DNA of 64,000 nt. Origin: Candidatus Saccharibacteria bacterium UBA6824 (lineage in GTDB: Bacteria; Patescibacteriota; Saccharimonadia; Saccharimonadales; UBA10212). Numbering within the stretch: the first letter of the stretch is position 1; every line of letters starts with the position of its first letter. The notes beneath the pieces are model-generated. The model was given only the letters and a program-made list of their open reading frames with translations, searched no databases and had not been told where the DNA came from. The stretch lies in assembly GCA_002452155.1 (NCBI GenBank), contig DKEK01000003.1, positions 9,851 to 73,850 on the forward strand. Direction: 5' to 3'. The position numbers and the translations under genes were made by a program. This document shows positions 7,474 to 60,965 of the stretch, piece by piece.

Positions 7474-9135
7474 CTAAGCCGCAAAGTGAAAGATATAGAG
7501 TTGAATAGCAGACTTACCAATTGCGCTGGCGTGAGCAAAAGCCTTTTTAATAATGCTCAAGCCCACAAGCAGTTTCTTGATAATTTCGTGTGTGCCGCTG
7601 TCTTGAGGTGCTTTGTCTGTTTCTTCTTCATTCTTCAGCTTTTGCATTTCGTCGGCCAAATGCCATTTAAGCGTTAGGTATGACAAAGACTCAATGAGTT
7701 CAGGCGTGTAGTCAATGGCCATCTTGTCTAAGAGCTCGGTGAATAATACCTCTAGCTCTTCTTGGGCTTCAGCTTCGGTAATAATATTTTCGCCACTGCT
7801 GGCCTCAAGCTTTGCTGGCACCTCAATAATTTTATCCAAAATTTCATTCACCTTTTCAGTCGCTTCCTGTTCGCTGGCCTTGATGCGCCCAGTCAGCTGA
7901 ATGAGCGAGTCTTCAATTTCCTCAATGGTTAAACTAATCTGAGCAAGCTGTTCCGGGCTGGTGACTTCCAGTTGCCCTGAAAGGTCTGATTCATTACTTA
8001 ACTGGGAAATTGATGTTTCTTCTCCTGCCTCTAGGTCATACTCAGCAACCTCCAGGGTTGGCATAGAAGACATATATAGCTCATCAAGTTCCAGATCAAC
8101 TTCTTCAAGATGGTCTAGCAGAACTTCTTCTTCAACAAAATTAGTGAAACTCTTAGTGCCCGTTTGATAATCAAGAGTCGCTAGAGTTGGCTCATATTCG
8201 GCCACTTCAATTTTTTCATCGCTCAGTTCTGTAGTATCGTCTGAAGTGGCAGCGCTTTCGGGGTCTAAGGGTGATAGCCCTGTGGGTTCCGGTTCGGAAG
8301 TTGCTTCAATTGCCACGGACAAAGTAAAAGGTTCGGTCTCTTGGTCTGCGACAAGTTGGGGCCTATCCGGTGCTGGCACTTCTTCAACAATAGGATTTGC
8401 TGCAGCATTGACCTCTAGTATTTCGAAAGTTGGCATTTGCTGTTTTGCCTCAACCTTTGATTTAATGGCGAATTTTGTTTCCTTTAATTGACCTTCGGCT
8501 GAGGGTCCCATAGGCTTAAATTCTTGGCCGGTATCATCAATACCGGATTCTAGCACTGAGCTTTCGGAGGTACTGGTCGCAACAACCAATTCTTCAGGCG
8601 CGCCAGGATTGCTTCCTTCAGAGCCAGAGGACTTTTCTGCCCTACTAGCGGATAGCTCTATGTGTTTGGCCCGGTCAATTTCTTTTTTCGGTTGCCTCTT
8701 TGAATCGACCGTATTTAGGTCCCCCTGTACTTTCTGGGTTTCAATTTTTGTATTACTCCGCTGATCAACCTCTTCATTTTTTTCAAGTTCATCTTCTTCC
8801 TGCTTGTCTCCCTCGTCCGGCTCTTCAGTTTCTGTCACCCGATTGGCCAGTAATTGACTCACCGCCAATGATACTAGGTGAATATTTTCATAAGTTATTG
8901 GTTCTGGATACGCATTCATGGCGTCACTTAGCGTCACTTCCATGTCATTCAGCCAGGAACATCTAACAAGCACGTCTGCATTTGCGGCTACAAGGGCAAA
9001 CAACTCCGCATCCCAGTTGTCGTCGATTATTTCACTACCAAAGCCACCAGATACATTGGTCTGATCTTGTATTTCTGGAATGCTCGCAGCCTCATAACCC
9101 AAGTTCTGTCCGAGTGAATATGCAGTTTCCGACAT
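7474..9135 (-). CDS. hyper-acidic (E/D/S/T-rich) orphan protein with hydrophobic C-terminal tail
   Basis: Long uninterrupted ORF. I prefer the ATG at 9135 (MSETAYSLG), preceded by AGGGG about 10 nt upstream, over the GTG at 9153. The sequence is dominated by runs such as EEPDEGDKQEEDELEKNEEVDQ. The C-terminus LLVGLSIIKKAFAHASAIGKSAIQLYIFHFAA is amphipathic/hydrophobic. I recognise no family. Confidence 0.55.
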   Translation of the reverse strand: MSETAYSLGQNLGYEAASIPEIQDQTNVSGGFGSEIIDDNWDAELFALVAANADVLVRCSWLNDMEVTLSDAMNAYPEPITYENIHLVSLAVSQLLANRVTETEEPDEGDKQEEDELEKNEEVDQRSNTKIETQKVQGDLNTVDSKRQPKKEIDRAKHIELSASRAEKSSGSEGSNPGAPEELVVATSTSESSVLESGIDDTGQEFKPMGPSAEGQLKETKFAIKSKVEAKQQMPTFEILEVNAAANPIVEEVPAPDRPQLVADQETEPFTLSVAIEATSEPEPTGLSPLDPESAATSDDTTELSDEKIEVAEYEPTLATLDYQTGTKSFTNFVEEEVLLDHLEEVDLELDELYMSSMPTLEVAEYDLEAGEETSISQLSNESDLSGQLEVTSPEQLAQISLTIEEIEDSLIQLTGRIKASEQEATEKVNEILDKIIEVPAKLEASSGENIITEAEAQEELEVLFTELLDKMAIDYTPELIESLSYLTLKWHLADEMQKLKNEEETDKAPQDSGTHEIIKKLLVGLSIIKKAFAHASAIGKSAIQLYIFHFAA

Positions 9136-9389
9136 TAAAATACCCCTACTCACCGGCAGGGGTCGAAAATACTTAAGTAGGTCAAGCTTTTTACTCCTGC
9201 TCGAGAGATTTTATGAAGCTGTATCGGACTTTAACCGTTGCGGCACAGTTCCGGATTTACACCGGATTCCAGCTATTTAATTTGTTAACGCTTGCCCCGT
9301 ACCTCTTCAGGGTGAGAGTAGTCTGTAATCAGATTACGATAACGCCTGCAAAAGGTGCGTGGGTAAATTTATAATAGCACAGGTAGATT

Positions 9390-9617
9390 TTAATGAAATC
9401 TAGGTTTGAGCGGTATAGCCACGGCGCCTAGGCCATGTTGGGTTTCTGGGTCTAGAGAAGGTCTAACAATAATTTCAACGTGCGGGGCTTCTAGGGGATT
9501 TTGAGCAACAGTACCATTTACTACTTCATAGCCGCCTTCAATTAAACTAAGGCGAGCTCTCTCCAACTCCGGCATAGCTCCAGGCATTTCGTAACTGTAA
9601 TCGACTGCTTCAGACAT
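9390..9617 (-). CDS. hypothetical small protein (75 aa)
   Basis: ORF only, no recognisable motif. It sits alone between the acidic protein and the yggT-like gene. Confidence 0.3.
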   Translation of the reverse strand: MSEAVDYSYEMPGAMPELERARLSLIEGGYEVVNGTVAQNPLEAPHVEIIVRPSLDPETQHGLGAVAIPLKPRFH

Positions 9618-13637: not shown

Positions 13638-13910
13638 ATGATTTTACTCGACAACCAGCCTAGGCTCTCCGACATCCAGGCTTTAATTGCCCGGGTGCCA
13701 CAGTTCCCATATTCGGTAAAACAGTTGATCAAATTGGCCCGCGAAGAACATTTTCCTGAAGAAGTAGTCAGTTTTTACAAAGCTTTTCCGCCAGACGAGG
13801 TCTTTGAGGACCCGGAAGATCTAGCCACCCGGACCGAGCAGATAGAAATCATGACGCATGAAGAGTTGGGGCAGCCTAAAGAGATCTGGAACGCCCCCGA
13901 AGAAGACTAG
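13638..13910 (+). CDS. DUF2795-like small protein
   Basis: FPYSVKQLIKLAREEHFPEEVVSFYKAFPPDEVFEDPEDL resembles the DUF2795 pattern (YPasK.eLi..A...gap.eV...l..lp...y.sp.dv). A GGAGG RBS lies at 13626-13630. Confidence 0.5.
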   Translation: MILLDNQPRLSDIQALIARVPQFPYSVKQLIKLAREEHFPEEVVSFYKAFPPDEVFEDPEDLATRTEQIEIMTHEELGQPKEIWNAPEED

Positions 13911-15340
13911 CTAGGCCAGAGGTGGACCTTGGTGGGCGGCCAGCCGGCAGCGCTAAAGTCGCCGGTTTTTTTAGCTTGGGAGTATTTGCCCCGGTAATTA
14001 CCGGCGGCAATTTGGCTAAGCGCCGCTACAAATTTATCGACTTCTCCTCTGGTGTTATACATGCCAAAACTGGCCCGTACCAGTCCCGGTATGCGGCGTT
14101 TGTCGCCCTGCCTTATTTCGTGGCCAAGTTCATGCATCTCGCGCTTGCTGACCTTGAGCAGGCGCGCTACATAAGGGTGGGCGCAAAAACATCCGCTACG
14201 CACGCCGATGCCGAACTCGGCGCCTAAGATGGCGGCCACCAGCGAGTGGCTAAGTCCCTCAACATTAAACGGGATAACACCCAGCCGGCTGGCCGTATTA
14301 GCCGGATTTGTATCGCCCAGAATTTGGACTCCGGTGATTTTTGCCATTTTAGCAAGTGCATACCTGGTTAGTTCGGCTTCGTGGTCGGCAATTTTAACCA
14401 TTCCGATGGTGCTTAGGGCTCGCAAAGCAGCCGCAAAGGCTACGGCACCCACTACGTTTGGCGAGCCGGCTTCGTCGCGGTCCGGGCAATCAGCCCAATC
14501 GATACGTTCGGTAGTCACCAGGTCAATCGTACCGCCGCCGCTATATTCCGGCTCACCCCGGCCAAAGGTATCCCGGCGGCCGATAATGGCGCCTGTACCG
14601 AAAGGCGCATACATCTTATGGGCCGAGACGACGATGTAGTCAAGGTGCTCGGGATCATCAAGCGACTTAACATTAATCCGGCGGTGCGGCGCCACCTGGG
14701 CGGCGTCGATTAGTATCTGGGCACCGGCGGCATGGACTTTGCGGGCAATCCTATGCACATCGGGCATTTGGCCGGTAACGTTGCTGGCACCGGTCAGAGT
14801 TACTAGTTTCACCCGTTTTTTATATTTTGCCAGCAACTCGTCCAAGTGGTCCTCGTCAAAGCGGCCCAAATCGTCCACTCCTATACGCTCGACCCGCGCC
14901 CGCTTGCGCCACGGCAAATCGTTACTGTGATGTTCCATTAGCGAAACCAGCACGATGTCGGTCTTTTTGAGCGGAATACGGTATGATAATTTATTCAAGG
15001 CCTCGGTGGAATTTTTGCCGAAAATCACCACGTGATCGTGGCTATTGCCGCCAAAAAAGTCGCGCACAATTTGCCGAGCCTGCTCGTAAGCCTCGGTTGA
15101 GACAACGCTCTTAAAGCCACTGCCGCGGTGGATCGACGAATACCAGGGCATAAAATCATTTACTGTCTGCAGCACTTCGGCTAGCACCGGGGTGCTGGCG
15201 GCGTTATCAAAATTTACATACTGGGTTAAATTGCCGTTTAAAAGAGGTACTTGGGTATCAATACCGACAACTTGGTCGCGGATGTTTAACTTAGCGGCGG
15301 TGGAGCTAGGATTTTTTAGTTTTTTCGTCAGAAGCGTCAT
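13907..15340 (-). CDS. class-V aminotransferase-fold PLP enzyme (cysteine desulfurase-like)
   Basis: PLP-lysine block VVSAHKMYAPFGTGAIIG and a conserved Cys region GVRSGCFCAHPY. Length is 477 aa. Confidence 0.75.
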   Translation of the reverse strand: MTLLTKKLKNPSSTAAKLNIRDQVVGIDTQVPLLNGNLTQYVNFDNAASTPVLAEVLQTVNDFMPWYSSIHRGSGFKSVVSTEAYEQARQIVRDFFGGNSHDHVVIFGKNSTEALNKLSYRIPLKKTDIVLVSLMEHHSNDLPWRKRARVERIGVDDLGRFDEDHLDELLAKYKKRVKLVTLTGASNVTGQMPDVHRIARKVHAAGAQILIDAAQVAPHRRINVKSLDDPEHLDYIVVSAHKMYAPFGTGAIIGRRDTFGRGEPEYSGGGTIDLVTTERIDWADCPDRDEAGSPNVVGAVAFAAALRALSTIGMVKIADHEAELTRYALAKMAKITGVQILGDTNPANTASRLGVIPFNVEGLSHSLVAAILGAEFGIGVRSGCFCAHPYVARLLKVSKREMHELGHEIRQGDKRRIPGLVRASFGMYNTRGEVDKFVAALSQIAAGNYRGKYSQAKKTGDFSAAGWPPTKVHLWPS

Positions 15341-15370
15341 AATAATCTGCTTTGATTATAACCCTTACTC

Positions 15371-15535
15371 TCAAGTATGCGACTCTATCTCTTTAGATTT
15401 GGGACTATGGTTATTAGCCGGCAATAATTTCTTAGCTAATCGGTAACCAGCCCAGCCTGCCAGAATTCCCAAAATTAGGCCGCCGACTTCTGGTGGCAAA
15501 GTCAATTTGACCCAATACGTATCTAATTCACTCGA
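15371..15535 (-). pseudogene. displaced 3'-terminal remnant of a PAP2 phosphatase gene
   Basis: My minus-strand translation is SSELDTYWVKLTLPPEVGGLILGILAGWAGYRLAKKLLPANNHSPKSKEIESHT*. The segment GLILGILAGWAGYRLAKKL matches 15 of 19 residues of GLILGAIAGWIGYYLAKKL at the C-terminus of the intact PAP2 gene (17847-18344). An in-frame stop lies immediately upstream, and there is no start codon or catalytic motif. Confidence 0.55.
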
Positions 15536-15779
15536 TTACGACTATTCCTGCATCTAGGACATTGGATTTCAGATACAAATCATTTACTTGCAAAACTGCC
15601 CCCAAAGTAGTATAAGAAGATTGACTGCTGTTGCATAACACGCGACTAGTTGCACATTCTACAACCTACCAAGGAGGTACTAGAGCTTAGAATTACTCCG
15701 TTTCTGTGGCTTGGCGTAAAGCCACACACGTCGTTCTGCGGCAGAAGCTTCCTATAGTTATTCGAAGGAGAAGAAGCTG

Positions 15780-17003
15780 ATGCCAAGCAAGACATCCAAG
15801 AAGCAAGGCTGGATGGTCGTAATCCTGACTGCGCTCATCGCGAGCACGGTCATGGGGCTGGCGACCGCCAGCCCGGCCGGAGCAAGGATTTCTGGCGGGG
15901 TGAATCCTCAGCCCTCCTGTCCCATCGACCCGGACAGCAGCCAGTGCTACGTGGCACGGGTCTCGATCTGGCTCGAGCCGAGCTCGATACTGACCGGCCA
16001 GCAGACCACGCTGAAGTGGAGCAGCAGCTACACCCAAAGCTGCGCCATCAACGGCGGGGACTTTGGACTCAACGGCTCCATGCTGTTGGGGCCATTCAAC
16101 AGCGCCGGCTCCTACAGCTGGAATATCGCCTGCGTGGGAGCGGGGACCGGCAACAACCCAACGGGGACGGCAACGCTGACTGTGACCGATCAGGCGCCGC
16201 CGCCTCCACCTCCGCCACCGCCAAGTGGCGACACCGCGTCGCCGACCACACCCACCAGCTTGCGGGCTACGGGGGTGACTAGCTCGTCGGTATCGCTAGC
16301 CTGGAACGCTTCGACTGACAACGTCGGCGTGACTGGCTACCAGGTGTTTCGGAACGGCGCACATATCGCCACCGTGACGGGCACCAGCTACGTAAACAGC
16401 GGTCTGACGGCTTCCACTAGCTACGGCTACACCGTCAGGGCACGAGATGCGGCTGGCAATGTCTCGGGCATGTCGACAACGCTCAGCGTGACGACAACTG
16501 ATACCTACGACTCGGCCTACTACTACGGCACACAAGAGGAGGAGAGCTTCCTCAGCCAGTTCTGCGGGCTGAGTAACAATGGTCCGCTGGCTGTCTGCTC
16601 AACCGGGGGCACGAACGCCCGGTGTTACAGGGTCGGAGTCAGCGTTTGGAAGCGGAACGCCATCACGATGATCTGGCGCTACACGCATGCGTTGAAGTTC
16701 TGCGCCAACGGCAGCATCGTGACGAGCGTTTGGGATCGGACGACCTACGGCGAGATTCTGATCCCCGCGGCGGTTCGCCCCATATACCCCTGGACGTGGT
16801 CCACGATCGCCGACTCGCCTCCTACGCCAGGGAAAACCACGACGATTAGCTACGTCAAGGGGAGATTCAGCGTCTCGATGTTGAAGTTCTTCCCGCTGAC
16901 GATCACCAACGAGCCCTGGATCGGTTTTCAGATCCAAGGGAACGGCCAGGCGTACTGCCAAACGTCCGTCGGTCGTGTCAGGAACTGCGAGGTACCGCGA
17001 TGA
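15780..17003 (+). CDS. secreted multidomain protein: signal peptide, Ig-like domain, poly-Pro linker, fibronectin type III domain, Cys-containing C-domain; encoded in a high-GC islet
   Basis: RBS GAAGGAG lies 8 nt upstream. Signal peptide is WMVVILTALIASTVMGLATASPAGA, followed by a PPPPPPPPP linker. FN3 block: PTSLRATGVTSSSVSLAWNASTDNVGVTGYQVFRNGAHIATVTGTSYVNSGLTASTSYGYTVRARDAAGNVS. Codon third positions are strongly G/C biased. Confidence 0.8.
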   Translation: MPSKTSKKQGWMVVILTALIASTVMGLATASPAGARISGGVNPQPSCPIDPDSSQCYVARVSIWLEPSSILTGQQTTLKWSSSYTQSCAINGGDFGLNGSMLLGPFNSAGSYSWNIACVGAGTGNNPTGTATLTVTDQAPPPPPPPPPSGDTASPTTPTSLRATGVTSSSVSLAWNASTDNVGVTGYQVFRNGAHIATVTGTSYVNSGLTASTSYGYTVRARDAAGNVSGMSTTLSVTTTDTYDSAYYYGTQEEESFLSQFCGLSNNGPLAVCSTGGTNARCYRVGVSVWKRNAITMIWRYTHALKFCANGSIVTSVWDRTTYGEILIPAAVRPIYPWTWSTIADSPPTPGKTTTISYVKGRFSVSMLKFFPLTITNEPWIGFQIQGNGQAYCQTSVGRVRNCEVPR

Positions 17004-17128
17004 GCAAGAAGAAGATCTTGCTTGGGGTGCTGGTGGTACTGGCGCTCCTATACATCGGCCTTGTCGCCTTCGGAGCTGGCTCTGAAGACGCTGGGCCATC
17101 CGTCCTCCCGGCTCTTCTAATCGGCTAA
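17000..17128 (+). CDS. small single-TM peptide (42 aa), translationally coupled (ATGA overlap) to the FN3 gene
   Basis: My translation is MSKKKILLGVLVVLALLYIGLVAFGAGSEDAGPSVLPALLIG*. It shares the high-GC codon style of the upstream gene and is below the ORF-track length cutoff. Confidence 0.45.
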   Translation: MSKKKILLGVLVVLALLYIGLVAFGAGSEDAGPSVLPALLIG

Positions 17129-17220
17129 AGGGTCTTAGCCGGTAAGAGGGACTACCTTCTACCCTTGGTGGCTTCGGCTACCGAGATTTGCTGCGACCAG
17201 TCACGCGCGATAGCAGTCAC

Positions 17221-17247
17221 GGGGGCCTCGAACAGAGGCCCCCTTTA
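17221..17247 (+). terminator. rho-independent terminator closing the high-GC islet
   Basis: GGGGGCCTC GAACA GAGGCCCCC followed by TTTAAATT. Confidence 0.65.
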
Positions 17248-17489
17248 AATTGACCGGCCGGATTTATTCATGAAATTGAAACTAATAGCCAAAAACTCAG
17301 AGGTCCCCAACGTTACCTCTTTTATTTGGCCGCGGACGCCCGGGTCACTGGTGGTTGGGTCAGTTTTTTTAAATTTTTCAGTTAAAAACGGCATAACAAT
17401 CTGTTTAAATTATACCCCTCCCGAGCAAGCGCTTGTAATTTTAAGTGACTAGGCGTTAGATAAAAGTATTAATTAGGCGGAGACATTAT

Positions 17490-17894
17490 ATGCCAAATGT
17501 GGATGTTCACTGGCTGGCCGTTATCGTAGCGGCAGTCGTTAATATGGTCGTTGGGTCGGTTTGGTACTCGAAAAATTTGTTCGGCAAAGAATGGTCTAAA
17601 TTAACAGGGCGCAAGATGGAAGATATGGGCGGTGGTGGTATGGGTTATGGCGTCGCAGCCGTTGGGGCGCTGGTGCAAGCATGGGTTTTAGCCCATTTCG
17701 TAGCTTATGCCGGTTCGGACACCTTCTGGAAAGGTTTAGTCACGGCTTTTTGGCTATGGCTGGGCTTTGTGGCCGTCGTAACAGCAGTGCACCTAGTGTT
17801 TGAGGGCCGTTCTTGGATGCTCTGGAAGATCAACGCCGGTTATTTCTTAGTTGTTATGCTGATCAACGGCGGTCTTCTGGCCGCCTGGCACTAA
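17490..17894 (+). CDS. DUF1761-family membrane protein
   Basis: The N-terminus VHWLAVIVAAVVNMVVGSVWYSKNLFGKEWSKLTG matches the DUF1761 pattern. Four TM segments; RBS GGCGGAG upstream. Confidence 0.6.
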   Translation: MPNVDVHWLAVIVAAVVNMVVGSVWYSKNLFGKEWSKLTGRKMEDMGGGGMGYGVAAVGALVQAWVLAHFVAYAGSDTFWKGLVTAFWLWLGFVAVVTAVHLVFEGRSWMLWKINAGYFLVVMLINGGLLAAWH

Positions 17895-18344
17895 AACCAG
17901 CTTCTTGGCTAAGTAATAGCCTATCCAGCCGGCAATAGCGCCTAAAATTAGGCCGCTGACTATATCGATTGGCCAGTGCACATGGGCAGCCACCCGGGCA
18001 ATGCCAGCAACTGCTGCCAGGGCAAAGACGTATTCGCCAAGACGCCGACGGTAGAAATAAATCACTGCTGCTAACGTAGTAGCCATTATGGTGTGGTCGG
18101 ATGGGAAGCTATTGTCGCCGCTATGCGTTACCAGCGGCATAATATTTTGGGCGACAAATGGCCGCTGGTGGAAATAAAGCGAGCCGGCTAATTTGCTCAA
18201 GATTATGGCTGTCATCCCCGCGATAATGACTGCCGCCGCGAATTGCCATCTGGCCCTGCCTTTCACCTGGAACCAGACGCCGAGTGTTAGCAGCCCAATG
18301 ATAAAGATTAGGTATTTAGCGCCAAAGATTATCAAGTTATCCAC
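17847..18344 (-). CDS. PAP2-family lipid phosphatase (undecaprenyl-diphosphatase/BcrC-like)
   Basis: PAP2 motifs SFPSDHT and ARVAAHVHWPIDIVSG within a 165-aa polytopic protein. Confidence 0.8.
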   Translation of the reverse strand: MDNLIIFGAKYLIFIIGLLTLGVWFQVKGRARWQFAAAVIIAGMTAIILSKLAGSLYFHQRPFVAQNIMPLVTHSGDNSFPSDHTIMATTLAAVIYFYRRRLGEYVFALAAVAGIARVAAHVHWPIDIVSGLILGAIAGWIGYYLAKKLVLVPGGQKTAVDQHNN

Positions 18345-18432: not shown

Positions 18433-18642
18433 ATGGAGCCACAAACAACTCAAGACCCGCCAACACAAACACCCCCGGCACCTGGACCAGCTGCACCGGC
18501 ACCTATGAATGGACCGGCCGGCCCAGGCGCAACACCTTCAGCTCCGGCCAGTCTAGCCAAAAAATCCAATAACAAAATGTTCCTTTGGGTCGGCCTAGCC
18601 ATCGCAGTTATTGTCATAGCTTGGTTCCTGATGAAGGGCTAG
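18433..18642 (+). CDS. small Pro/Ala-rich protein with C-terminal TM anchor
   Basis: TQDPPTQTPPAPGPAAPAPMNGPAGPGATPSAPAS followed by the TM MFLWVGLAIAVIVIAWFLM. RBS GGGAGA upstream. Confidence 0.4.
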   Translation: MEPQTTQDPPTQTPPAPGPAAPAPMNGPAGPGATPSAPASLAKKSNNKMFLWVGLAIAVIVIAWFLMKG

Positions 18643-18648
18643 ACAAAA

Positions 18649-18810
18649 ATGGAACCTGAAAGAGACAAACCGGCCAAGGGATACGGCAAACGCCCGATGT
18701 GGCAATGGATAGTAATTTATGTAGTTGTAGCGGCTATTGTCTACGCCCTAATCTACTTCATTTTCATTCACAAATCCGGCAGCGGCACCTCTGGCGGCGG
18801 ACTTTACTAA
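18649..18810 (+). CDS. small single-TM protein (53 aa)
   Basis: My translation is MEPERDKPAKGYGKRPMWQWIVIYVVVAAIVYALIYFIFIHKSGSGTSGGGLY*. It starts 6 nt after the previous stop and is below the ORF-track cutoff. Confidence 0.35.
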   Translation: MEPERDKPAKGYGKRPMWQWIVIYVVVAAIVYALIYFIFIHKSGSGTSGGGLY

Positions 18811-19295
18811 GCAGCGTATTCATTAACGCCTGAGCGTTTTTTTAGTTCGCTTAATCTGGCGATGAAGGAGCTGGCGGCGCCATGAGCGCCTAAAACTTTG
18901 AGAGCACCAATTAAAACATAGAGCTGATCCAGCTCTTTTTCAATGATTGCCGGCGCGTTTTCGACTTCTTTAAAAAACAGCTCGATTTTATCGACCAGCC
19001 ATTTTTCTTCACTGGTTTTTAGCTGTTTGGGCATGATTTTAGTTTCTGCGGCGATGGTTGGTTTGACGACCTCCAGCGAGCGGGCCGAGCGGTCGCGTTT
19101 TTGCAAATGGCCGCGCTTAATCAAGTTATTGACGTGCAGAGCTACCGTCGCCACCGAGCTGTAGCGCAATCCCTGCATAATTTCGCGGTAGCTGGGGCTG
19201 TAGCCGTGAGCGGCGATAAATTGCTCGATAAAACTCAGCAGTTCTTTTTGTTTCTTAGTCGGCCGGACAGCAACGTCTGTTTTTTGTTCTTCCAT
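18807..19295 (-). CDS. LexA-type winged-helix DNA-binding protein lacking the S24 peptidase domain
   Basis: The N-terminus QKELLSFIEQFIAAHGYSPSYREIMQGLRYSSVATVALHVNNLIKRGHLQKRDRSARSLEV matches the LexA DNA-binding domain. The C-terminal ~85 aa are helical and contain no Ser/Lys dyad or Ala-Gly cleavage context. Confidence 0.7.
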   Translation of the reverse strand: MEEQKTDVAVRPTKKQKELLSFIEQFIAAHGYSPSYREIMQGLRYSSVATVALHVNNLIKRGHLQKRDRSARSLEVVKPTIAAETKIMPKQLKTSEEKWLVDKIELFFKEVENAPAIIEKELDQLYVLIGALKVLGAHGAASSFIARLSELKKRSGVNEYAA

Positions 19296-19477: not shown

Positions 19478-19896
19478 GGTGCAGGTAGTCTGACGGGAAA
19501 GACCCACCAGCGATACCACACATAGTTCCAAATAGTGAAGAAGCCGGCCGATATAAATTGGCCTACGTACGGAGAGATACCGATTTGCCGCAAACCGTAA
19601 ACAATAAAGTAATCCATCACAAAATCAACAATTGTAATTACTGCGTAACGACCACTAACCTGGCCCAAATGGCCTTTAAGCTTGGGGTTGCGGAACACCC
19701 AGTATCGCTGCAGGGTGAAGTTTACCGTCCAGCCGACTAAATTTGCGCCGAGCTTGGCCCACCACAAACTCCAGCCCAATACCGACCACAGCAGGGCGAA
19801 AACGCCGTAGCCAGTCCAAAAATAAGCCCCGCCGCTAACCAAATATTCAACTGCCTGGATTGTTAATTTAGGCTGCCGCCTGTTTAGTTTTTTCAT
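19438..19896 (-). CDS. GtrA-family membrane protein (lipid-linked sugar translocation)
   Basis: Four TM segments with the typical FLVSGGAYFWTGYGVFALLW...LQRYWVF...NYVWYRWWVF blocks. The last ~20 codons (PVRLPAPRHPGSRRSRARG) come from the palindromic element. Confidence 0.7.
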   Translation of the reverse strand: MKKLNRRQPKLTIQAVEYLVSGGAYFWTGYGVFALLWSVLGWSLWWAKLGANLVGWTVNFTLQRYWVFRNPKLKGHLGQVSGRYAVITIVDFVMDYFIVYGLRQIGISPYVGQFISAGFFTIWNYVWYRWWVFPVRLPAPRHPGSRRSRARG

Positions 19897-21203
19897 CTTG
19901 CCCCGCGTTTACCTGTAAGTATAGGGGTTAGGGCGATACCGGCCAAGCCCCACCATAGATAGGAAAGAGTATCGTCGGTCCAGGCGTGTGACAACAGGTT
20001 TACAAAAGTGATGCCGACGAGGCTAGCCAGCAGGATTTTGGCCAGCTGGTCATTGCGGCGTATCCAAAGTTCCCTTGCGACCAGTAAATTGATGACAATA
20101 AATAATGTCATACCGACCACACCCACTTCTTGGCCGATTTGCAGGAAATAATTCTCGGCAATGCGCGGCGGCTGATTGTTCCGCAGCGAAGCCGGTCCGG
20201 CTGTCCCTGGCCCCCGCCCCAATGGCTGATGGATAATATCGCGGGCGCCATTTTTCATGGACTGCAGACGGTCAGCGTTAGAACTTCTGGGTGCCGTGGA
20301 GACATTACTCGTATGAAAAAGGGTATCTTGCACCGGCTGACTGTTGCGGAAAGCGTAGATCGTGCCGAGAGCCAAAACCACCGCCGCTACAACCACAACA
20401 ATAGTTATGCGGCCCGAAATTTTCTTGGCGATTCCCCACCAGACCAGCAGGCCCAGAGCTACCGCTACGCCGATTTCGGCGCTGCGCGAATAGCTGTAAA
20501 ACAAAACAATTAATGCCCCCAACAGAAAAAAACCAAAGAATTTGAGGTTCTTCCGAAAGTATGTGCCTAGCGCAACAATTATTAAAACTAAATAGGCCCC
20601 CAGCGGATTAGCTCCGCGCAAACTTGATTGGATACGCCGGTAATCTAAATTAGAATCGACTGTTTGATAGGCCGGGATAGTGCTTTTGCCGTAACCAAAG
20701 TGCCGCAAAAAGTCGTAGGGCAGCAAAAATTTCTGCACCAAACCAAATGCGACCACGATCGCTGCTGGTGCCATGAGTATTTTTTGCCAGTTACGTCCCA
20801 GGAAATCGCTTTTTGCGGCGATCACGGCACAAAGGATGAAGAATCCAATGAACCGCAGGTTAACAATGAATGCGTAGGCAAGGGCTGTTTTATTTACCTC
20901 ATGATGGGCATATGCCCAAGCGCCCAGAGTAATGTGCAGCAAGATATATAACCCAAAAAGCTGGGTTATCCATGAGGTAGCCAGCCGCTTTTTCAATTTT
21001 TTGTCTATCAAAACCAGCCAAAATACAAACGGCAGGGCGGCGGCCAGTAAAATCTCTTTCCAGATACGCCAAGCGTCGAGATGTCCAAAATTACTGCCGA
21101 CCCAATTAGTTAAAATGGCATGAAACGGTAGCAAAACCAATACGGCAGCGACTACGAAGGAGAGTCTTTCGGCTAGTTTACTAACAGTGGTAGAAGGCCT
21201 CAT
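19893..21203 (-). CDS. O-antigen ligase/polymerase-like (Wzy_C family) polytopic membrane protein
   Basis: 436 aa with about 11 TM segments and a periplasmic-loop block YSYSRSAEIGVAVALGLLVWW typical of the O-antigen ligase family. It overlaps gtrA by 4 nt. Confidence 0.65.
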   Translation of the reverse strand: MRPSTTVSKLAERLSFVVAAVLVLLPFHAILTNWVGSNFGHLDAWRIWKEILLAAALPFVFWLVLIDKKLKKRLATSWITQLFGLYILLHITLGAWAYAHHEVNKTALAYAFIVNLRFIGFFILCAVIAAKSDFLGRNWQKILMAPAAIVVAFGLVQKFLLPYDFLRHFGYGKSTIPAYQTVDSNLDYRRIQSSLRGANPLGAYLVLIIVALGTYFRKNLKFFGFFLLGALIVLFYSYSRSAEIGVAVALGLLVWWGIAKKISGRITIVVVVAAVVLALGTIYAFRNSQPVQDTLFHTSNVSTAPRSSNADRLQSMKNGARDIIHQPLGRGPGTAGPASLRNNQPPRIAENYFLQIGQEVGVVGMTLFIVINLLVARELWIRRNDQLAKILLASLVGITFVNLLSHAWTDDTLSYLWWGLAGIALTPILTGKRGAR

Positions 21204-21224: not shown

Positions 21225-22667
21225 ATGAAAAATAATGCCTCGCTAGTTTATAGTCTTATTCTGGTGGTGGGCGATTTTTTAGCGCTGGTGGTAGCTTTTA
21301 CCGGCGCTTATATTTTGCGCGGCCCCTTAAGTACAGTTCCAGTAGCCCATCCCATCCCGGCAGGGGCTTATTTAAGTATTTTTCTAATCCTGTTGCCTTT
21401 TTGGATTCTATTCTTTGGCCTGCTGGGGCTGTATAGCAGCTCCATCCAAGAGAAGCGCTTTAATGAACTGGGCCGCCTGCTAATCGGCTCGTTCGTCGGG
21501 CTACTGTTTGTCATAAGCTATGGCTACGCCGTCAACCGTACAATCTTCCCTGCCCGGTTGGTGCCACTATACGGCTTCATTTTAGCATTTGTATTTTTGG
21601 TAGGCTTTCGCAATCTGGCCCGCTCAGCCAGGGCCTATCTATATAAATACGATATTGGTATTACCAATATTTTAATTGTCGGTAACACTAAAGTGGCTAC
21701 CGAGCTTGTAAGCTCCCTCTCTAATAGCCGTGTTTCTGGATACCGCATTGTTGGCATCGTTGGCAGTAAAAGCCACACGCCCGGGCGTTTCCCGCACATC
21801 CCGGTTTTTGATTCATTCGCCGAAGCCGTAAAAAAAATTCATACAGGAGATATCCATAGCATTGTCCAAACAGAACTCTATGTGGCTCAAGTCGCCAACA
21901 ACGAAATTCTAGAATTCGCCCAAACGCATCATATTGCCTACCGCTTTTTGCCTGGTAACAGCGAACTGTTTGTGGGTAATATTGCCGTCGAGCTATTCCG
22001 CTCGCAAATCCCGGTCATAGCTGTACATCAAACGGCCCTAATCGGGTGGGGACGTATAATCAAACGTTTATTCGATTTGTTAGTGTCAATCGTCGCCTTC
22101 ACTATATTGTCGCCGCTACTGCTACTAATAAGCTTGCTGATCTTAATTTTTAATCCTGGCGCGGTTATCTTTAAGCAAAAGCGAATCACTCGCTTCGACA
22201 ATCGCTTTAATGCCTACAAGTTCCGTACCATGAAAAGAAAATACAGCAACCGGGACCCGGCAGTTGTTTTTAAGGAATTAGGACGCCAGGATTTGGTCAA
22301 AGCCTACCAAAATGCCCAAAAGTTGACTAACGATCCGCGTATTAGCTTATTCGGCAAGTTTTTACGGCGTTTTAGCCTGGACGAACTGCCCCAACTCATA
22401 AATGTAATTAAAGGCGATATAAGCTTGGTTGGGCCGCGGGCAGTTGTGCCGGCTGAACTTAAATATTATGAAAACAAAGGCCCGATGCTGCTTAGTGTTA
22501 AAACTGGCATTACCGGACTGGCCCAGGTCAGCGGCCGCAGTAACCTTGATTATTATGAACGGGCTAAGCTTGATCTTTATTACATCCAGAACTGGAGCTT
22601 CTGGTTGGATTTAATGATTCTGGTTAAAACCCTGCGGGTGATATTTAAACGCAGCGGGGTCCGTTAG
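21225..22667 (+). CDS. polyprenyl-phosphate hexose-1-phosphate transferase (WbaP/CpsE-type initiating enzyme)
   Basis: N-terminal TM bundle, central Rossmann-like linker, and a C-terminal bacterial sugar transferase domain with KRLFDLLVS...FKQKRITRF...YKFRTM...DELPQLINVIKGDISLVGPRA. Confidence 0.85.
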   Translation: MKNNASLVYSLILVVGDFLALVVAFTGAYILRGPLSTVPVAHPIPAGAYLSIFLILLPFWILFFGLLGLYSSSIQEKRFNELGRLLIGSFVGLLFVISYGYAVNRTIFPARLVPLYGFILAFVFLVGFRNLARSARAYLYKYDIGITNILIVGNTKVATELVSSLSNSRVSGYRIVGIVGSKSHTPGRFPHIPVFDSFAEAVKKIHTGDIHSIVQTELYVAQVANNEILEFAQTHHIAYRFLPGNSELFVGNIAVELFRSQIPVIAVHQTALIGWGRIIKRLFDLLVSIVAFTILSPLLLLISLLILIFNPGAVIFKQKRITRFDNRFNAYKFRTMKRKYSNRDPAVVFKELGRQDLVKAYQNAQKLTNDPRISLFGKFLRRFSLDELPQLINVIKGDISLVGPRAVVPAELKYYENKGPMLLSVKTGITGLAQVSGRSNLDYYERAKLDLYYIQNWSFWLDLMILVKTLRVIFKRSGVR

Positions 22668-26472: not shown

Positions 26473-28665
26473 ATGCGACTTCTGAAAAACAAAAAAACAA
26501 TATTCATCGCCTTAATTATAGCCGCCTTTGCTGCGGTTGGCGGCGGTATTTGGCTGCAAAGCAATCAGCCCAGCCGTGAGGCCGAACCAGGACGGCCGCA
26601 AACTTCGCTTCCAGGTGCCATCTCACCGTCAGGTCCGACGGCCTACGAAGGGGCTAAGCACGCGACTCAACAAAGCGTTGTCCGGTTCAGCGATGAAGCC
26701 AACAAACAAGACTTCCTAAAAGCTAATAATTTATCTTCGGATGACTTAAAGAAGGTAGACGAATTGCCCAATACCTACATTGTTAACCGACCGGAGGGTC
26801 AGTTAACCCCGTCCGGCGCATTGGTATCAGAACAAAAACAGTACATGGCGCTGCTGGCACCCAATGATCCAATTTATCCTCAGTGGTATACCGATAAGAT
26901 TTCGGCGCCAGCGGCTTGGGATACTTCTACCGGTTCAAGTAGCACAGTTGTAGCCGATATCGACACCGGTTTTGCCCTAAACCATGAAGACTTAGCCGAC
27001 CGCTGGGCCATTAATCCAAGCGAGTCAGGGCCGACAGTCCAGCAAGGGCCGGCACCTAATTGCACAAGCCGAGGCCTGGCCTTGGATAAGAATTGTAATA
27101 ATTTAGATGAAGATGGTGATGGAAATGTCGATAACTGGCGTGGTTGGGATTTTGCCCACAACGATAACGACCCGTTAGCCGGCACCACCAGCCCCAGTAG
27201 TAGCGGTGCTACCCACGGCACCGAAACCGCCGGTCTGATTGGTGCTAGCGGCAATAACGCTAAGGGTGTAGCTAGTATTAACTGGGGGGCCAAGATTTTG
27301 CCAATCGAAGCCCTTGACGATAACGGCATTGGTTCCACAACCGCTGTCGCCTCGGCTATCCACTACGCAGTAGACCAAGGCGCTAAGGTTATCAATATGA
27401 GCCTAGGCACCGCCTCCCAAGACCCCATCTTGAAAGCCGAGCTCGATTATGCTCAGGCCCACGATGTGGTGGTACTGGCCGCCGCCGGTAACTGTGGCAG
27501 TCCTACTAGCTACAACTTAAATGGCTGCAGCGTGGTTGGGCAGATGATTTATCCGGCTAATTACCCCCAGGTTTTGGCGGTTGGAGCCACAGATATAAAT
27601 GATAACCGGGCCAGTTTTAGTAGTTGGGGGTCAAACTTAGATGTTGTAGCTCCCGGTTCTGGTAGCCTAAGAACTACCGTGTGGTCGGCAGACAACCAGA
27701 CTAGCCTATACTCTACCGACATTAATGGCACTTCCTTTTCCTCACCCATAGTAGCCGGCCTAGCGGCACTTTATAGGGGCCTTAAGCCAGCCGCCAGCGC
27801 TAACGAAACGGTTAACGCTATCACTAGTAACACTGATAAGGTCAGCGGCATGGCCGGCCAAAACTTTACTAATGATTACGGCTTTGGCCGAGTTAATACG
27901 GCCCATGCCCTAAATGGAACACCACCGGTAGCGCCAGCACCGGCGCCACTGCCCAATTCCACTGCTACGACCCTAAGTGCGGGTGGCATATTGCACAAGG
28001 ATGATTACCTGCTGTCTCCCGACGGCCGCTCGGCGCTGGCGCTGCAGCGCAACGGCAATTTTGTTCTTTACGACAACTTCAAATTGGTCTGGGAAACCGG
28101 TGCTCTAGGCAGAGCTGCTGACCGAGCGATTATGCAGCCCGACGGCAATTTTGTGGTCTACGACAGTAGCAACCAAGCGCTTTGGAACAGCACCACCGAC
28201 GGCAACGCCGGCGCCCGTCTGATTATGCAAACCGATGGCAATGTGGTGATTTACAGTTCTAGCAACGTAGTGCTCTGGGCAACCCACACCCTGCACAACC
28301 CCGACAATTTGAACTATATTATGTCACCGGGCTTCGGCGGTATCGCCACGATGTATCCCGGCCAGAGTATTTATACGCCAGACCGGCGCTTCCGCCTGAT
28401 ATTACAGACCGATGGAAATTTAGTACTTTATTCACCGACCAAAGCCCTGTGGGCTTCCGGTACCGACGGCCAACCGACAGCCTTTTTAACCCTGCAGTCC
28501 GATGGAAATTTAGTTTTGTATGACCGCAGCGTCCATCCGCTATGGGCTAGCTACACCGTCAGGTTTGGCCTCACCAGGTTGATAGTGCAGGGCGATGGAA
28601 ACTTGGTGCTCTACGACCAGTTTAATGTTGCCCGTTGGAATACTGAAACCGCAGGCGCCTCATAG
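26473..28665 (+). CDS. secreted subtilisin-like S8 serine protease fused to two C-terminal bulb-type (MMBL) lectin domains
   Basis: Signal anchor IFIALIIAAFAAVGGGIWL. S8 triad blocks VVADIDTGF (D), THGTETAG (H), INGTSFSSPIVAG (S). Six lectin sub-motifs: LQRNGNFVLY, MQPDGNFVVY, MQTDGNVVIY, LQTDGNLVLY, LQSDGNLVLY, VQGDGNLVLY (QxDxNxVxY). Confidence 0.85.
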   Translation: MRLLKNKKTIFIALIIAAFAAVGGGIWLQSNQPSREAEPGRPQTSLPGAISPSGPTAYEGAKHATQQSVVRFSDEANKQDFLKANNLSSDDLKKVDELPNTYIVNRPEGQLTPSGALVSEQKQYMALLAPNDPIYPQWYTDKISAPAAWDTSTGSSSTVVADIDTGFALNHEDLADRWAINPSESGPTVQQGPAPNCTSRGLALDKNCNNLDEDGDGNVDNWRGWDFAHNDNDPLAGTTSPSSSGATHGTETAGLIGASGNNAKGVASINWGAKILPIEALDDNGIGSTTAVASAIHYAVDQGAKVINMSLGTASQDPILKAELDYAQAHDVVVLAAAGNCGSPTSYNLNGCSVVGQMIYPANYPQVLAVGATDINDNRASFSSWGSNLDVVAPGSGSLRTTVWSADNQTSLYSTDINGTSFSSPIVAGLAALYRGLKPAASANETVNAITSNTDKVSGMAGQNFTNDYGFGRVNTAHALNGTPPVAPAPAPLPNSTATTLSAGGILHKDDYLLSPDGRSALALQRNGNFVLYDNFKLVWETGALGRAADRAIMQPDGNFVVYDSSNQALWNSTTDGNAGARLIMQTDGNVVIYSSSNVVLWATHTLHNPDNLNYIMSPGFGGIATMYPGQSIYTPDRRFRLILQTDGNLVLYSPTKALWASGTDGQPTAFLTLQSDGNLVLYDRSVHPLWASYTVRFGLTRLIVQGDGNLVLYDQFNVARWNTETAGAS
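27994..28662 (+). repeat. tandem-lectin coding module, copy 1 (paralogous to 36920-37600)
   Basis: The protein segments align end to end: HKDDYLLSPDGRSALALQRNGNFVLYDNFKLVWETG... against HRDDYLLSPDAQSALTLQRNGDLALYSNFQLVWESG..., both ending WNTxTAGA. Nucleotide similarity is visible by eye. Confidence 0.8.
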
Positions 28666-38797: not shown

Positions 38798-40095
38798 CGC
38801 TCGGCATAGATATTTCGGCGCTACAGGGTCCGCACCGCATGCGCGGCATTGGTTTTGCCATTTTAAACTTTATAAACAATATCTCTAGTGCAGACCGCAG
38901 TAGCCACAAATTTGTTTTCTTTATGTTCAAACAAAATGAAGTCGAGGCGCTCGCCTTACTCAACCTGGACGGCATGAATTATGAGGTTCGTTATTTGGAG
39001 TCCAAAGGTAAAAAAGCCGAACCGAAGACGTCACTGCTCTCCGCCCGCTGGCGTCATCTACTGCACAGCGCCGGCCGCCAGCTAGGCGAGTTAAAGGACC
39101 GATACGTTGGCAATTCGATGGTTAAAGATTGTAGGGACATTGACGCCTTTATTCAGCCGGACCAATCGGCCAGTCTACCGCGCAGCCGCCGCAAGATGAA
39201 GAAAGTTTTGATAATTTACGACATCATCCCCTACGTGCTGGAGTGGGAATATTTATGGTCATATGACACAGCCCGCCTGCGCGGATTTTCGCGCAAAGCG
39301 GCACTGCGCTGCGTGGCTCGCCGTTGGTTTTACATTAAAAAGTTAAAGGTTAATACCAGGCGAGCTGATATTTTGTTAGCCATATCCGAAGTTACTAAAA
39401 ACGACTTTGTGCGCCACACCGGCGCCAAGTCCAAAAAGATCAAAGTTATTCATCTGGGAGTTCCGGATCAAACAAACGTTGCCAAAGAAATGAGGCTGCA
39501 GCGCTACCATAAATCTTCATGGGGTTATGTAGCCAAAGATTTCAGGCTGGATCCCAAGACGCCGTTTATTTTATATGTTGGTGGTGGCGACCGGCGGAGG
39601 CGGATTGATGAGCTTATTGCCGCTTTCAATAATTTACGCGGCGAAGGCATAGACCTTAAATTGGTTTTGTCTGGTGATTCCATGCAGGGCCCGGACAATA
39701 TTGCTACGCAGGAAATCCAGGGTGCGCTCAAAACTTCGTCCTATCTTGAAGATATTATTTTCGCTGGTTTTACCAGTGATGAAGCCCGGAATTATTTATA
39801 CAAAAACTGCCTGGCCTTTGTTTATCCTAGTACCTATGAAGGTTTTGGTCTACCGGTACTGGAAGCCATGGACCATGGCTGCCCGGTAATTTGTTATCCT
39901 AACCAGGCGGTCAAAGAAGTAGCCGGTAATTTACCGATTTATGCCAAGAACCATGGTGACCTTTATGAAAGCATCAAGCAGCTTCTAAGTATGCCCACCG
40001 GGGAGCGTGAGGTCGTGGGGCGCAAAAACATGGCCCACGCCGAGAAATTTTCGTGGTCTAAAACCGCCAAAGAAATTATGTCAGCTATTTCTTAG
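38794..40095 (+). CDS. GT4-family glycosyltransferase
   Basis: The block AFVYPSTYEGFGLPVLEAMDHGCPVICYPNQAVKEV is present. It overlaps the previous GT by 4 nt. Confidence 0.8.
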   Translation: MTLGIDISALQGPHRMRGIGFAILNFINNISSADRSSHKFVFFMFKQNEVEALALLNLDGMNYEVRYLESKGKKAEPKTSLLSARWRHLLHSAGRQLGELKDRYVGNSMVKDCRDIDAFIQPDQSASLPRSRRKMKKVLIIYDIIPYVLEWEYLWSYDTARLRGFSRKAALRCVARRWFYIKKLKVNTRRADILLAISEVTKNDFVRHTGAKSKKIKVIHLGVPDQTNVAKEMRLQRYHKSSWGYVAKDFRLDPKTPFILYVGGGDRRRRIDELIAAFNNLRGEGIDLKLVLSGDSMQGPDNIATQEIQGALKTSSYLEDIIFAGFTSDEARNYLYKNCLAFVYPSTYEGFGLPVLEAMDHGCPVICYPNQAVKEVAGNLPIYAKNHGDLYESIKQLLSMPTGEREVVGRKNMAHAEKFSWSKTAKEIMSAIS

Positions 40096-41113
40096 CGAGA
40101 TTTTTGTTTTTAGAAAAGACAAGCATAACCCAGTCATCCGCTTTGCCTAAGATTGAATGGTAATCTTTATGCTCGGGTGTATAAAGACTGCCCCGTTCGT
40201 TCACTAAATAAATATTTCCAAAATCCTCGAGCATTCGTTCATAGAAATCCTTTGGATTTTTATAGCTGTCCTTAGTAAACTCTACGAAAAGTGTTAAGTC
40301 AGGACTTTTCCGAACTATTTTTCTCATACCCTGGTAGGCTTCATCTTCATAGCCTTCAATATCCATTTTGATAAGATCAATTTTGAGTATTTGATTCTTC
40401 ATACAATATGAGTCGATGGACGTTGAGTTTACTTTTATACTTTTGTTGACTTTTAGCAGCATTTTATCGTGCATATATTTATCGAGGTGCTTAAGTGGGT
40501 GTAATGTAGAAGAGCCTATGTAATCCTTCAGTATGTTGAGCGTAACAGTGCCTTCTCGTTCTGCTATTGCCAGGTTTTCGACTTTGGACTGCTCGACATA
40601 AAAGTTAGTTGAAAGTGTTTTATTTATATAAGGGATAAGGTCCGGGTTGGCCTCAAAAAAAACTATTTTTGATTTCTTTTTATTTGTTTTATGGGCAGCC
40701 ACTAAGCCAAAGTAGCCAAAGTTAGCCCCAATATCAAAAACTGTGTCTTCGGCCTTTATTACAGAGAGCCAAGCCTGAGTTATTTGGGGCTCCCAAATGC
40801 CGTCTAAGGCTAGATGAGGAGCTACCGATATATCCCTGGTATCTAGATATATTTTTAATCCATTAAATAACTTGGCAATAACTTCATGTTCAGAGATCTG
40901 TACTATGCCTGAATTTGTAATTTGTTGACTTAGATGCTTATTTTGTTGACTTAGATGCTTATAAAGTTCTAGCTGCCGACTGTTAAATGCAGATTGCTCT
41001 TGATATATCACTTCGAGTCGAGTTCTTAAGATCGCTATCGACTCTATCACTTCTGAAAGAAATCTGTCCCGAGTTTTTTTAAGAAGTTCTTTAGGTGTAT
41101 TAAGTTTGCTCAT
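40085..41113 (-). CDS. FkbM-family SAM methyltransferase with N-terminal coiled-coil extension
   Basis: FkbM motif VFDIGANFGYFGL and IDLIKMDIEGYE. The N-terminal ~70 aa are heptad-like (LEVIYQEQSAFNSRQLELYKHLSQQNKHLSQQ). Confidence 0.75.
   Translation of the reverse strand: MSKLNTPKELLKKTRDRFLSEVIESIAILRTRLEVIYQEQSAFNSRQLELYKHLSQQNKHLSQQITNSGIVQISEHEVIAKLFNGLKIYLDTRDISVAPHLALDGIWEPQITQAWLSVIKAEDTVFDIGANFGYFGLVAAHKTNKKKSKIVFFEANPDLIPYINKTLSTNFYVEQSKVENLAIAEREGTVTLNILKDYIGSSTLHPLKHLDKYMHDKMLLKVNKSIKVNSTSIDSYCMKNQILKIDLIKMDIEGYEDEAYQGMRKIVRKSPDLTLFVEFTKDSYKNPKDFYERMLEDFGNIYLVNERGSLYTPEHKDYHSILGKADDWVMLVFSKNKNLAKK
40920..40961. repeat. in-frame tandem duplication of 21 nt (2 copies, 20/21 identical) = duplicated heptad KHLSQQN/KHLSQQI
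   Basis: Read directly: aTTTGTTGACTTAGATGCTTA followed by tTTTGTTGACTTAGATGCTTA. Confidence 0.9.
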
Positions 41114-60958: not shown

Positions 60959-60965
60959 TTCGTAC

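Follow-up and report, generated by a model that had tools for sequence, protein, structure and literature searches.

A two-gene surface-protein cassette of foreign composition in a Saccharimonadia-like genome, likely acquired from a high-GC Actinomycetota-type source

Horizontally acquired genes have been described in Saccharibacteria, including the arginine deiminase system (PMC8764695) and niche genes (PMC7427843), and TM7x showed no strong sign of host-derived genes (PMC7427843). Cultured Saccharibacteria have Actinobacteria as hosts, and for soil lineages the host can only be guessed, by way of co-occurrence or gene transfer (PMC11659515). Few clear molecular signs of exchange between these bacteria and their actinobacterial hosts are available. 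Here we describe a two-gene cassette encoding a secreted modular protein and a small membrane peptide, located in a G+C-rich islet (positions 15780–17250) of a 64-kb stretch of contig DKEK01000003.1, hereafter the window. It is likely that this cassette was acquired horizontally from a high-GC Actinomycetota-type source. As in the acquired Saccharibacteria genes mentioned above, foreign genes with a patchy distribution and foreign affinities sit in a reduced epibiont genome; here, however, the step in G+C content at third codon positions (GC3) is sharp and little ameliorated, the kind of donor agrees with the phylum of the known hosts, and the cargo is an envelope protein pair rather than a metabolic pathway. 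The type of event, horizontal transfer of a surface protein, is ordinary. Less ordinary are the direction of transfer and the cargo, an envelope pair from the phylum parasitised by cultured Saccharibacteria (PMC11659515). The locus offers a clear case, with little amelioration, in which a surface-exposed protein pair was transferred out of high-GC donors, evidence of later movement and recombination of the cassette among Saccharibacteria, and a small uncharacterised protein family that appears mobile and allelically variable in the donors, making the cassette a candidate for host-interaction work and possibly a marker for host prediction.

Base composition set the islet apart from the rest of the window, which has a mean G+C content of 49.1%. 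It was the richest 1.47 kb of the 64 kb: among 1471-nt segments the peak started at 15773 (GC 0.616), and 15780–17250 itself reached 0.613 vs. 0.489 ± 0.029 in 41 non-overlapping segments (z = 4.3). The open reading frame (ORF) at 15780–17003 had a GC3 of 0.792, compared to a mean of 0.530 (standard deviation, SD, 0.071) over 54 ORFs, a distance of approximately 3.7 SD. Codon usage was contrasted by the synonymous-codon log-likelihood under the window's own genes vs. the genes of the high-GC contigs carrying homologues (see below), a measure on which amino-acid content has no influence. Host genes of the window scored 0.64 ± 0.105 with a minimum of 0.44, and the cassette gene scored −0.076, 6.8 SD off the window genes, its codon usage fitting the high-GC donor contigs and its own genome about equally well. 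The peptide gene (score 0.093, GC3 0.67) also had non-host codon usage. An initial annotation of this DNA had proposed a compositionally foreign islet with G/C-ending codons and antisense shadow ORFs, and these results confirmed it: its spot counts were exact (44 of 60 G+C at 15841–15900 and at 16201–16260, 26 of 60 at 21241–21300), and 15780–17003 contains three antisense ORFs (114, 166, and 79 aa). The start it had given, 15536, was wrong; the G+C-rich DNA begins at approximately 15780, at the start codon, and 15506–15779 is AT-rich (GC 0.427). To the right of the terminator, G+C drops to 0.41 in 17251–17489. The region 15780–17250 is a genuine two-gene cassette whose composition is foreign to the Saccharimonadia-like genome, and it has the atypical base and codon usage by which genomic islands are recognized. 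The cassette and its signals are the following:

15647–15779 (+): AT-rich 5′ leader with the ribosome-binding site AAGGAG at 15765–15770; common to L007, a second Saccharibacteria-type copy
15780–17003 (+): gene for the secreted modular protein, 407 aa (GC 0.619, fn3 match, domain models)
17000–17128 (+): gene for the membrane peptide, 42 aa (ATGA overlap with the upstream stop)
17221–17243 (+): intrinsic terminator, 9-bp stem (8 G-C pairs) ahead of a T run; the G+C-rich DNA ends here on its right side

The ribosome-binding site, the coupled membrane peptide and the terminator had been listed in the initial annotation together with a layout of signal peptide, Ig-like domain, Pro9 linker, FN3 domain, and C-terminal domain (C-domain), and all of them were recovered. 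The ribosome-binding site lies 9 nt ahead of the ATG, and the start of the 42-aa ORF overlaps the upstream stop, indicating translational coupling. In the 407-aa protein, a Sec-type signal peptide (aa 1–35) is followed by a short CPxDPx4C disulfide loop (CPIDPDSSQC). The Ig-like domain (approximately aa 41–139) was modelled by AlphaFold2 (AF2) as a seven-stranded sandwich with a predicted local distance difference test (pLDDT) value of 87.7, and its best PDB matches were Ig, PKD, and FN3 folds (probability 1.0, template-modelling (TM) score approximately 0.55). After the Pro9 run (aa 140–148; 16197–16223) comes the FN3 domain (aa 157–234; PF00041, E = 1e-8, 35.7 bits vs. a gathering cut-off of 25). 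This module was 62–74% identical to FN3 domains of GH18 chitinases from Nonomuraea and Sphaerisporangium (Streptosporangiales) and matched the model of the CbhB exoglucanase (NF041611) in its FN3 region (E = 9e-29). The C-domain (aa 236–407, approximately 170 aa) was predicted to be all-beta (AF2 pLDDT 83.6, predicted TM score, pTM, 0.77) and disulfide-rich with long beta hairpins. The peptide combines a basic N-terminus (MSKKK) with a single hydrophobic helix and a subsequent FGxG motif; it had no match in PADLOC, PHROGs, or NCBIfam, and an Rfam scan of 15300–17600 returned nothing.

The likeness to accessory modules of actinobacterial glycosidases or adhesins, also suggested by the initial annotation, held for the FN3 domain, which resembles FN3 of actinobacterial GH18 enzymes, and did not extend to any catalytic or carbohydrate-binding domain. 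The cassette FN3 is like the FN3 linkers of actinobacterial glycoside hydrolases, but it is an exchangeable module ahead of an unrelated C-domain. A glycosidase accessory protein was therefore rejected: fn3 was the only Pfam domain found, the neighbours are DUF1761, PAP2, and aminotransferase genes, and the protein belongs to a separate two-gene family. Two further candidates were discarded in the upstream region. A riboswitch or attenuator in the leader was dropped because its fold was not significant (no better than shuffled sequence, z = −1.2), and a sigma-70-like promoter seen by eye at approximately 15589–15617 failed the scan criteria and is not claimed.

In an exhaustive HMMER scan, the C-domain turned up in just 20 proteins among 1.84 billion representatives, all metagenomic and none functionally named; the window C-domain matched the nearest members at E = 4e-40 (phmmer). 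The family members have in common a signal peptide, a Cys loop near the N-terminus, and, ahead of the C-domain, a linker rich in Pro or Gly. Their middle modules vary and include TSP3-type repeats, Ig-like domains of other kinds, and domains resembling beta/gamma-crystallin or Inhibitor_I36; some proteins have no middle module. The window protein has kept the family features of the C-domain (approximately 165 aa, all-beta, YPWxW and EPW motifs, C47, C73, C158, and C168). Eight C-domain contigs were read (L088–L092, L096–L098), with GC 0.66–0.72, and the composition of the gene equalled that of its flanks in all four contigs compared (L088–L091). A membrane ORF of 29–64 aa with an invariant FG followed the C-domain gene in 9/9 contexts, often overlapping its stop. 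In a distance tree, the window C-domain was placed among the high-GC sequences, with 40–46% identity to the nearest. A more distant version of the cassette was present in L099, a 289-kb contig of 71.5% GC, and consisted of Ig, poly-Pro, FN3, and a divergent C-domain followed by a membrane peptide. Its protein was 39% identical to that of the window from Ig through FN3, and hhalign gave its C-domain a probability of 79%. C-domain and FGxG peptide together form a tiny, unnamed, metagenome-only two-gene family with a new C-domain. Other searches added little: the PDB sequence searches with the N-domain and the C-domain were both empty, and word-index searches with either domain alone were empty and missed even the protein itself, which reflects a limit of the index and not absence. 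The phage, plasmid, and IMG/VR collections gave no match, and a degenerate-pattern search gave no viral and one metagenome match (L092) in a collection that missed the window's own contig and is therefore incomplete.

The high-GC copies pointed to a mobile unit. In L088, genes for a tyrosine integrase and an Xre-type repressor enclose the cassette, which directly adjoins a tmRNA gene. The surrounding segment (L088 1–6460), in a contig of 66% GC, is a small integrative element at the tmRNA gene, and its cassette homologue has a 33-aa peptide. Flanks with 84–87% nucleotide identity (SSB side, NIF3, hydrolase, Ku) are common to L089 and L099, but the cassette alleles enclosed by them, 1.3 and 1.6 kb long, are unrelated, and each has its own membrane peptide. 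Both alleles sit between SSB and NIF3: that of L089 (88–1407) has TSP3-type repeats and a subfamily-1 C-domain, and that of L099 (11586–13184) has Ig, Pro11, FN3, and a divergent C-domain. Because shared flanks enclose unrelated alleles, the cassette is a replaceable, polymorphic unit. The copies in L089–L092 and L099 have ordinary chromosomal neighbours and no mobility genes. Compared to integrative elements and prophages at tRNA or tmRNA genes, the L088 cassette occupies the same cargo position, whereas the window copy has no integrase and no tRNA/tmRNA junction and is flanked by fragments of neighbouring genes. The cassette probably arose in high-GC Actinomycetota and moved in three ways, some observed and some inferred: on a small plasmid- or phage-like element, between integrase and tmRNA gene; by allele-for-allele swapping at one chromosomal locus; and by entry into Saccharibacteria.

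The two nearest available relatives of the recipient were L008, a 'Patescibacteria group bacterium' metagenome-assembled genome (MAG; 10.7-kb contig), and L009, a 'Candidatus Saccharimonadales' MAG. Because the neighbouring class-V aminotransferase was 86% identical to that of L008 and 67% to that of L009, and nine genes round the islet were syntenic with L009, the recipient was treated as a Saccharimonadia-like soil genome. A tblastn search of L008 and L009 with both cassette genes gave zero matches; both relatives lack the cassette at this locus, as is typical for a genomic island. Gene order differs between them: in L008, a PAP2 phosphatase gene directly adjoins the aminotransferase gene, and in L009 the order is UppP, DUF1761, aminotransferase. 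The flanks of the window cassette contain the following features:

13907–15340 (−): class-V aminotransferase, left flanking host gene (Pfam Aminotran_5, E = 5e-84)
approximately 15245–15385 (−): duplicated segment, copy 1, corresponding to promoter and 5′ end of the aminotransferase gene (multi-sequence alignment)
15371–15492 (−): remnant of a PAP2-type phosphatase gene, last approximately 40 codons, 122 nt (aligns with the 3′ end of L008 PAP2 and the spacer, blastn 75–78%)
17320–17420 (−): second, decayed copy covering promoter, start codon, and approximately 25 codons of the aminotransferase gene (aligned with the start of this gene in the window, L008, and L009)
17490–17894 (+): DUF1761 membrane protein, host-type (Pfam DUF1761, E = 7e-29, GC 0.516)
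17847–18344 (−): intact PAP2-type (undecaprenyl-diphosphatase-like) gene (Pfam PAP2)

The window carries both junction types found in the relatives. On the left, the PAP2 remnant and a 30-nt spacer reproduce the L008-type junction of PAP2 and aminotransferase. On the right, DUF1761 and PAP2 follow the L009-type order: DUF1761 is 80% identical to that of L009 and has the L009-type position relative to the aminotransferase start, and it gave zero tblastn matches in the 10.7-kb L008 contig. The intact PAP2 gene matched the NCBIfam model for undecaprenyl-diphosphate phosphatase below its cut-off. Flanking direct repeats, a further mark of genomic islands, were present as imperfect duplicates of the PAP2 3′ end (72%) and the aminotransferase 5′ end (approximately 78%), which are gene fragments and not short att sites. 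The PAP2 pair (D1) aligns 15429–15488 with 17902–17961, its second copy being the 3′ end of the intact gene (17847–17965). The copies are spaced 2473 nt apart for PAP2 and 2054 nt for the aminotransferase (D2). In the decayed aminotransferase copy, 17377–17414 was 79% identical to the L008 junction (blastn), and tblastn aligned MPFLTEKFKK...VRGQI with MTLLTKPPKK...IRDQI. A second, weak aminotransferase-like match at 17185–17253 was not collinear and was treated as chance. An own integrase or transposase or an insertion at a tRNA or tmRNA gene, which also characterize genomic islands, were found only in the L088 homologue; a tRNA-Asn gene is located 2 kb from the window cassette, and it is also near the aminotransferase in L008 and much further away in L009.

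As fragments of both flanking genes are duplicated, the immediate donor was probably another Saccharibacterium, so that the last transfer would have been from one Saccharibacterium to another. The neighbouring-gene fragments around the window copy point to homologous or illegitimate recombination. On the simplest reading, a block of approximately 2.05 kb, consisting of PAP2 3′ fragment, leader, cassette, and aminotransferase 5′ fragment, would have come from a cassette-carrying relative with L008-type gene order and recombined into an L009-type chromosome; a single Campbell-type crossover within the 5′ end of the aminotransferase gene is the probable route. This scheme replaced simple integration at the PAP2 3′ end after the aminotransferase 5′ duplicate was found.

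Several neighbouring genes deserve mention in their own right. A PAP2-type undecaprenyl-diphosphatase-like gene (17847–18344, −) is present in the window and in L008, and L009 has UppP/BacA at 8577–9428 (−; NCBIfam 409 bits vs. a cut-off of 394), which looks like non-orthologous displacement of the C55-PP phosphatase at a syntenic position. The PAP2 proteins of the window and L008 were only 52% identical, compared to 79–86% for neighbouring genes. The aminotransferase gene (13907–15340) is locally G+C-rich, up to 0.62 in 200-nt segments, and its next-best relatives after Saccharibacteria are in MAGs labelled beta proteobacterium and Chloroflexota (58–65% identity); this gene may itself have a history of transfer. 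Two genes next to the locus are conserved in each of the three Saccharibacteria genomes, one coding for a small membrane protein rich in Pro (18433–18642, +) and one for a 162-aa protein with the LexA DNA-binding domain only and no peptidase domain (18807–19295, −).

The second Saccharibacteria-type copy, L007, comprises 1.66 kb, with a gene of GC 0.62 between short flanks of GC 0.49. It was 82% identical in nucleotides to the window over 15647–16201 (leader, signal peptide, and Ig; 72% in amino acids). The leader (15647–15779 vs. L007 1–131) matched at 85% by blastn, and leader plus the first approximately 120 coding bases reached a mean column identity of 89%. The likeness ends at the linker; beyond it, L007 differs in its modules, and its C-domain is very divergent. 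The 136 codons in common gave a dN/dS of 0.55 between window and L007. As L007 shares leader and Ig and then diverges, we infer that the AT-rich leader is a lineage-specific expression signal and that the cassette has been maintained and recombined in the Saccharibacteria lineage rather than being a dead insertion. The mosaic L007 copy with the same leader would fit a cassette kept and reshuffled in this lineage.

With regard to function, our best guess is a membrane-tethered surface protein. The protein would be exported by Sec, and its conserved C-domain, paired with the FGxG peptide translated alongside it, would remain membrane-bound. The Pro-rich linker could then span the wall, with the exchangeable Ig and FN3 domains facing outward as binding modules that could attach to an actinomycete surface. 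Signal peptide, Ig and FN3 modules, and Pro-rich stalk are shared with sortase substrates of the LPXTG type, but the cassette protein lacks the LPXTG motif as well as the C-terminal helix and basic tail, ending in ...GRVRNCEVPR. Since the defining features were looked for and not found, it is not classed as an LPXTG protein, and we propose that the separate peptide supplies the tethering in place of an LPXTG anchor.

The best-surviving rival, although we regard it as doubtful, shares the same transfer origin and makes the C-domain a secreted bacteriocin-like toxin, the coupled membrane peptide its immunity partner, and the Ig, FN3, crystallin, and TSP3 modules exchangeable receptor-binding parts. 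Polymorphic toxin–immunity and colicin-like cassettes likewise combine a secreted modular protein with a small coupled gene and undergo allele replacement at a fixed locus. Tight coupling of a small membrane ORF downstream in every context, different alleles at one locus in related genomes (L089, L099), one copy on an integrative element (L088), and a disulfide-rich C-domain with long beta hairpins are all in line with a toxin. In the cassette, however, the C-terminal domain is conserved across the family and the upstream modules vary; there is no recognizable toxin domain, with no sequence or fold match to any toxin family, and what lies downstream is a membrane peptide of 30–60 aa with a conserved FGxG motif. 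The Pro-rich linker right ahead of the conserved domain better suits a wall-spanning stalk. Because the C-domain is conserved and the N-terminal modules are variable, tethering fits better than its rivals.

Assignment of the donors to Actinomycetota, as already suspected in the initial annotation, gained support from four sides, although the last step was likely between Saccharibacteria. The primary sigma factor beside the L090 and L091 copies clusters at ≥90% identity with MBA3476107.1, which is labelled Actinomycetota. L088 encodes a transglycosylase domain of the Rpf type (PF06737) together with a replication ATPase (AAA_25) that has approximately 32% identity to its counterparts on small plasmids of Streptomyces and Kineococcus and in actinophages; most of its phage matches were actinophages, and the single best was a Microcystis phage. 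The best named FN3 matches were all Streptosporangiales chitinases. Finally, L099, with 71.5% GC, has a cassette of the same layout as that of the window, its membrane peptide included. Donors among other high-GC bacteria, such as Chloroflexota or another soil phylum, would make the host link accidental. In favour of such donors, taxonomic labelling is limited to the L090/L091 pair and derives from a MAG; moreover, Pfam scans of small neighbouring ORFs (L099, L090) contained no actinobacteria-specific marker. Against them stand the PF06737 domain and the replication ATPase of L088, with actinobacterial plasmids as best plasmid matches, the FN3 affinities, and the Ku and NlpC/P60-type wall hydrolases that L099 also encodes, and we consider non-actinomycete donors unlikely.

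A number of points weigh against the account of an actinomycete-derived, membrane-tethered surface protein as a whole. Support for the phylum consists of a single sigma-factor cluster and of indirect signs, and among PDB sequences the LigA of L099 was closer to the E. coli than to the mycobacterial enzyme, a comparison of little help in placing this contig. With the nearest C-domain homologue only 46% identical, the actual donor is unsampled. No mobility gene (integrase or transposase) was found within approximately 9 kb of the window cassette. The order of events could equally be reversed, with L008 as a deletion derivative of a window-like ancestor, the comparison involving two relatives only. 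The window protein, like P0129, has lost one Cys pair that is conserved in the family. The C-domain fold had no match by Foldseek in PDB and BFVD (best E = 0.04–0.12, TM score < 0.36), and its sequence had none in Pfam, PHROGs, PADLOC, or NCBIfam. Of the two readings, the functional one is much weaker than that of transfer.

It is plausible, by analogy with the host range of cultured species (PMC11659515), that the donor lineage is also the physical host of this Saccharibacterium. A phage-type vector would be plausible as well, since a host prophage binds TM7x with limited infection (PMC13578794). A more far-reaching proposal is that a polymorphic, element-borne envelope module of soil Actinomycetota, with a new fold, was captured from the bacterium's own host lineage and now serves as a determinant of host recognition or attack or as a phage shield; we deem this improbable in full, but if true, one could predict the host range of uncultured soil Saccharibacteria from the presence of the cassette.

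Much less probable is a cassette derived from actinomycete elements as a surface exclusion or anti-phage 'moron' that now shields the epibiont from host-derived phages. The position of the L088 cassette between integrase and repressor at an attachment site, which is usual for lysogenic conversion, and the aforementioned binding of a host prophage to TM7x agree with this, but the C-domain matched nothing in PADLOC or PHROGs, the phage, plasmid, and IMG/VR collections gave no matches, and the L089–L092 and L099 copies are surrounded by ordinary chromosomal genes. Acquisition of a surface-protein cassette from a high-GC Actinomycetota-type source remains our preferred reading.

The authenticity of the locus was supported by independent assemblies. 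The gene and both flanks also occur in contigs of JGI 3300013766, 3300013763, and 3300001536, in four ENA assemblies, in the Logan assembly of SRR1586256, and in NCBI GCA_036771655.1, so that identical junctions were seen in at least nine contigs from several samples and assembly pipelines (JGI, MEGAHIT-style ENA, Logan, NCBI). The window was 100% identical to the JGI 3300013766 and 3300001536 contigs over 13–15 kb and differed from the NCBI MAG GCA_036771655.1 by 2 mismatches in 7.2 kb. A 396-aa "variant" (P0122) was dropped as such, being an alternative start call on identical DNA, which left no variation within the species to compare. A chimeric assembly is excluded by these identical junctions across samples and pipelines, and, taken together with a native gene whose composition merely reflects an Ala/Gly/Pro/Thr-rich protein (GC2, the G+C content at second codon positions, is 0.59), it is scarcely credible, as GC3 and synonymous codon choice are independent of amino-acid content and both are extreme, and the gene is missing in L008 and L009.

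Elsewhere, the window is occupied by a cluster resembling a type IV secretion system (T4SS) and by glycan loci. In a glycan locus, an FkbM-family methyltransferase gene (40085–41113, −) adjoining a Wzt-type ABC transporter ATPase gene was a second compositional outlier in the opposite direction (GC 0.365, GC3 0.356). A Wzy-type O-antigen ligase/polymerase-like gene (19893–21203, −) had 46–49% identity to L008 and L009, compared to 70–86% for adjacent genes, and is a hypervariable surface-glycan gene. The T4SS-like cluster (56400–63904, −) includes a protein with SLT transglycosylase and amidase_3 domains, a VirB4/TraG-type ATPase, and an 862-aa protein with no Pfam match. A 730-aa subtilase (Peptidase_S8; 26473–28665, +) with a C-terminal, D-mannose-binding B_lectin domain is a candidate secreted host-interaction protein.

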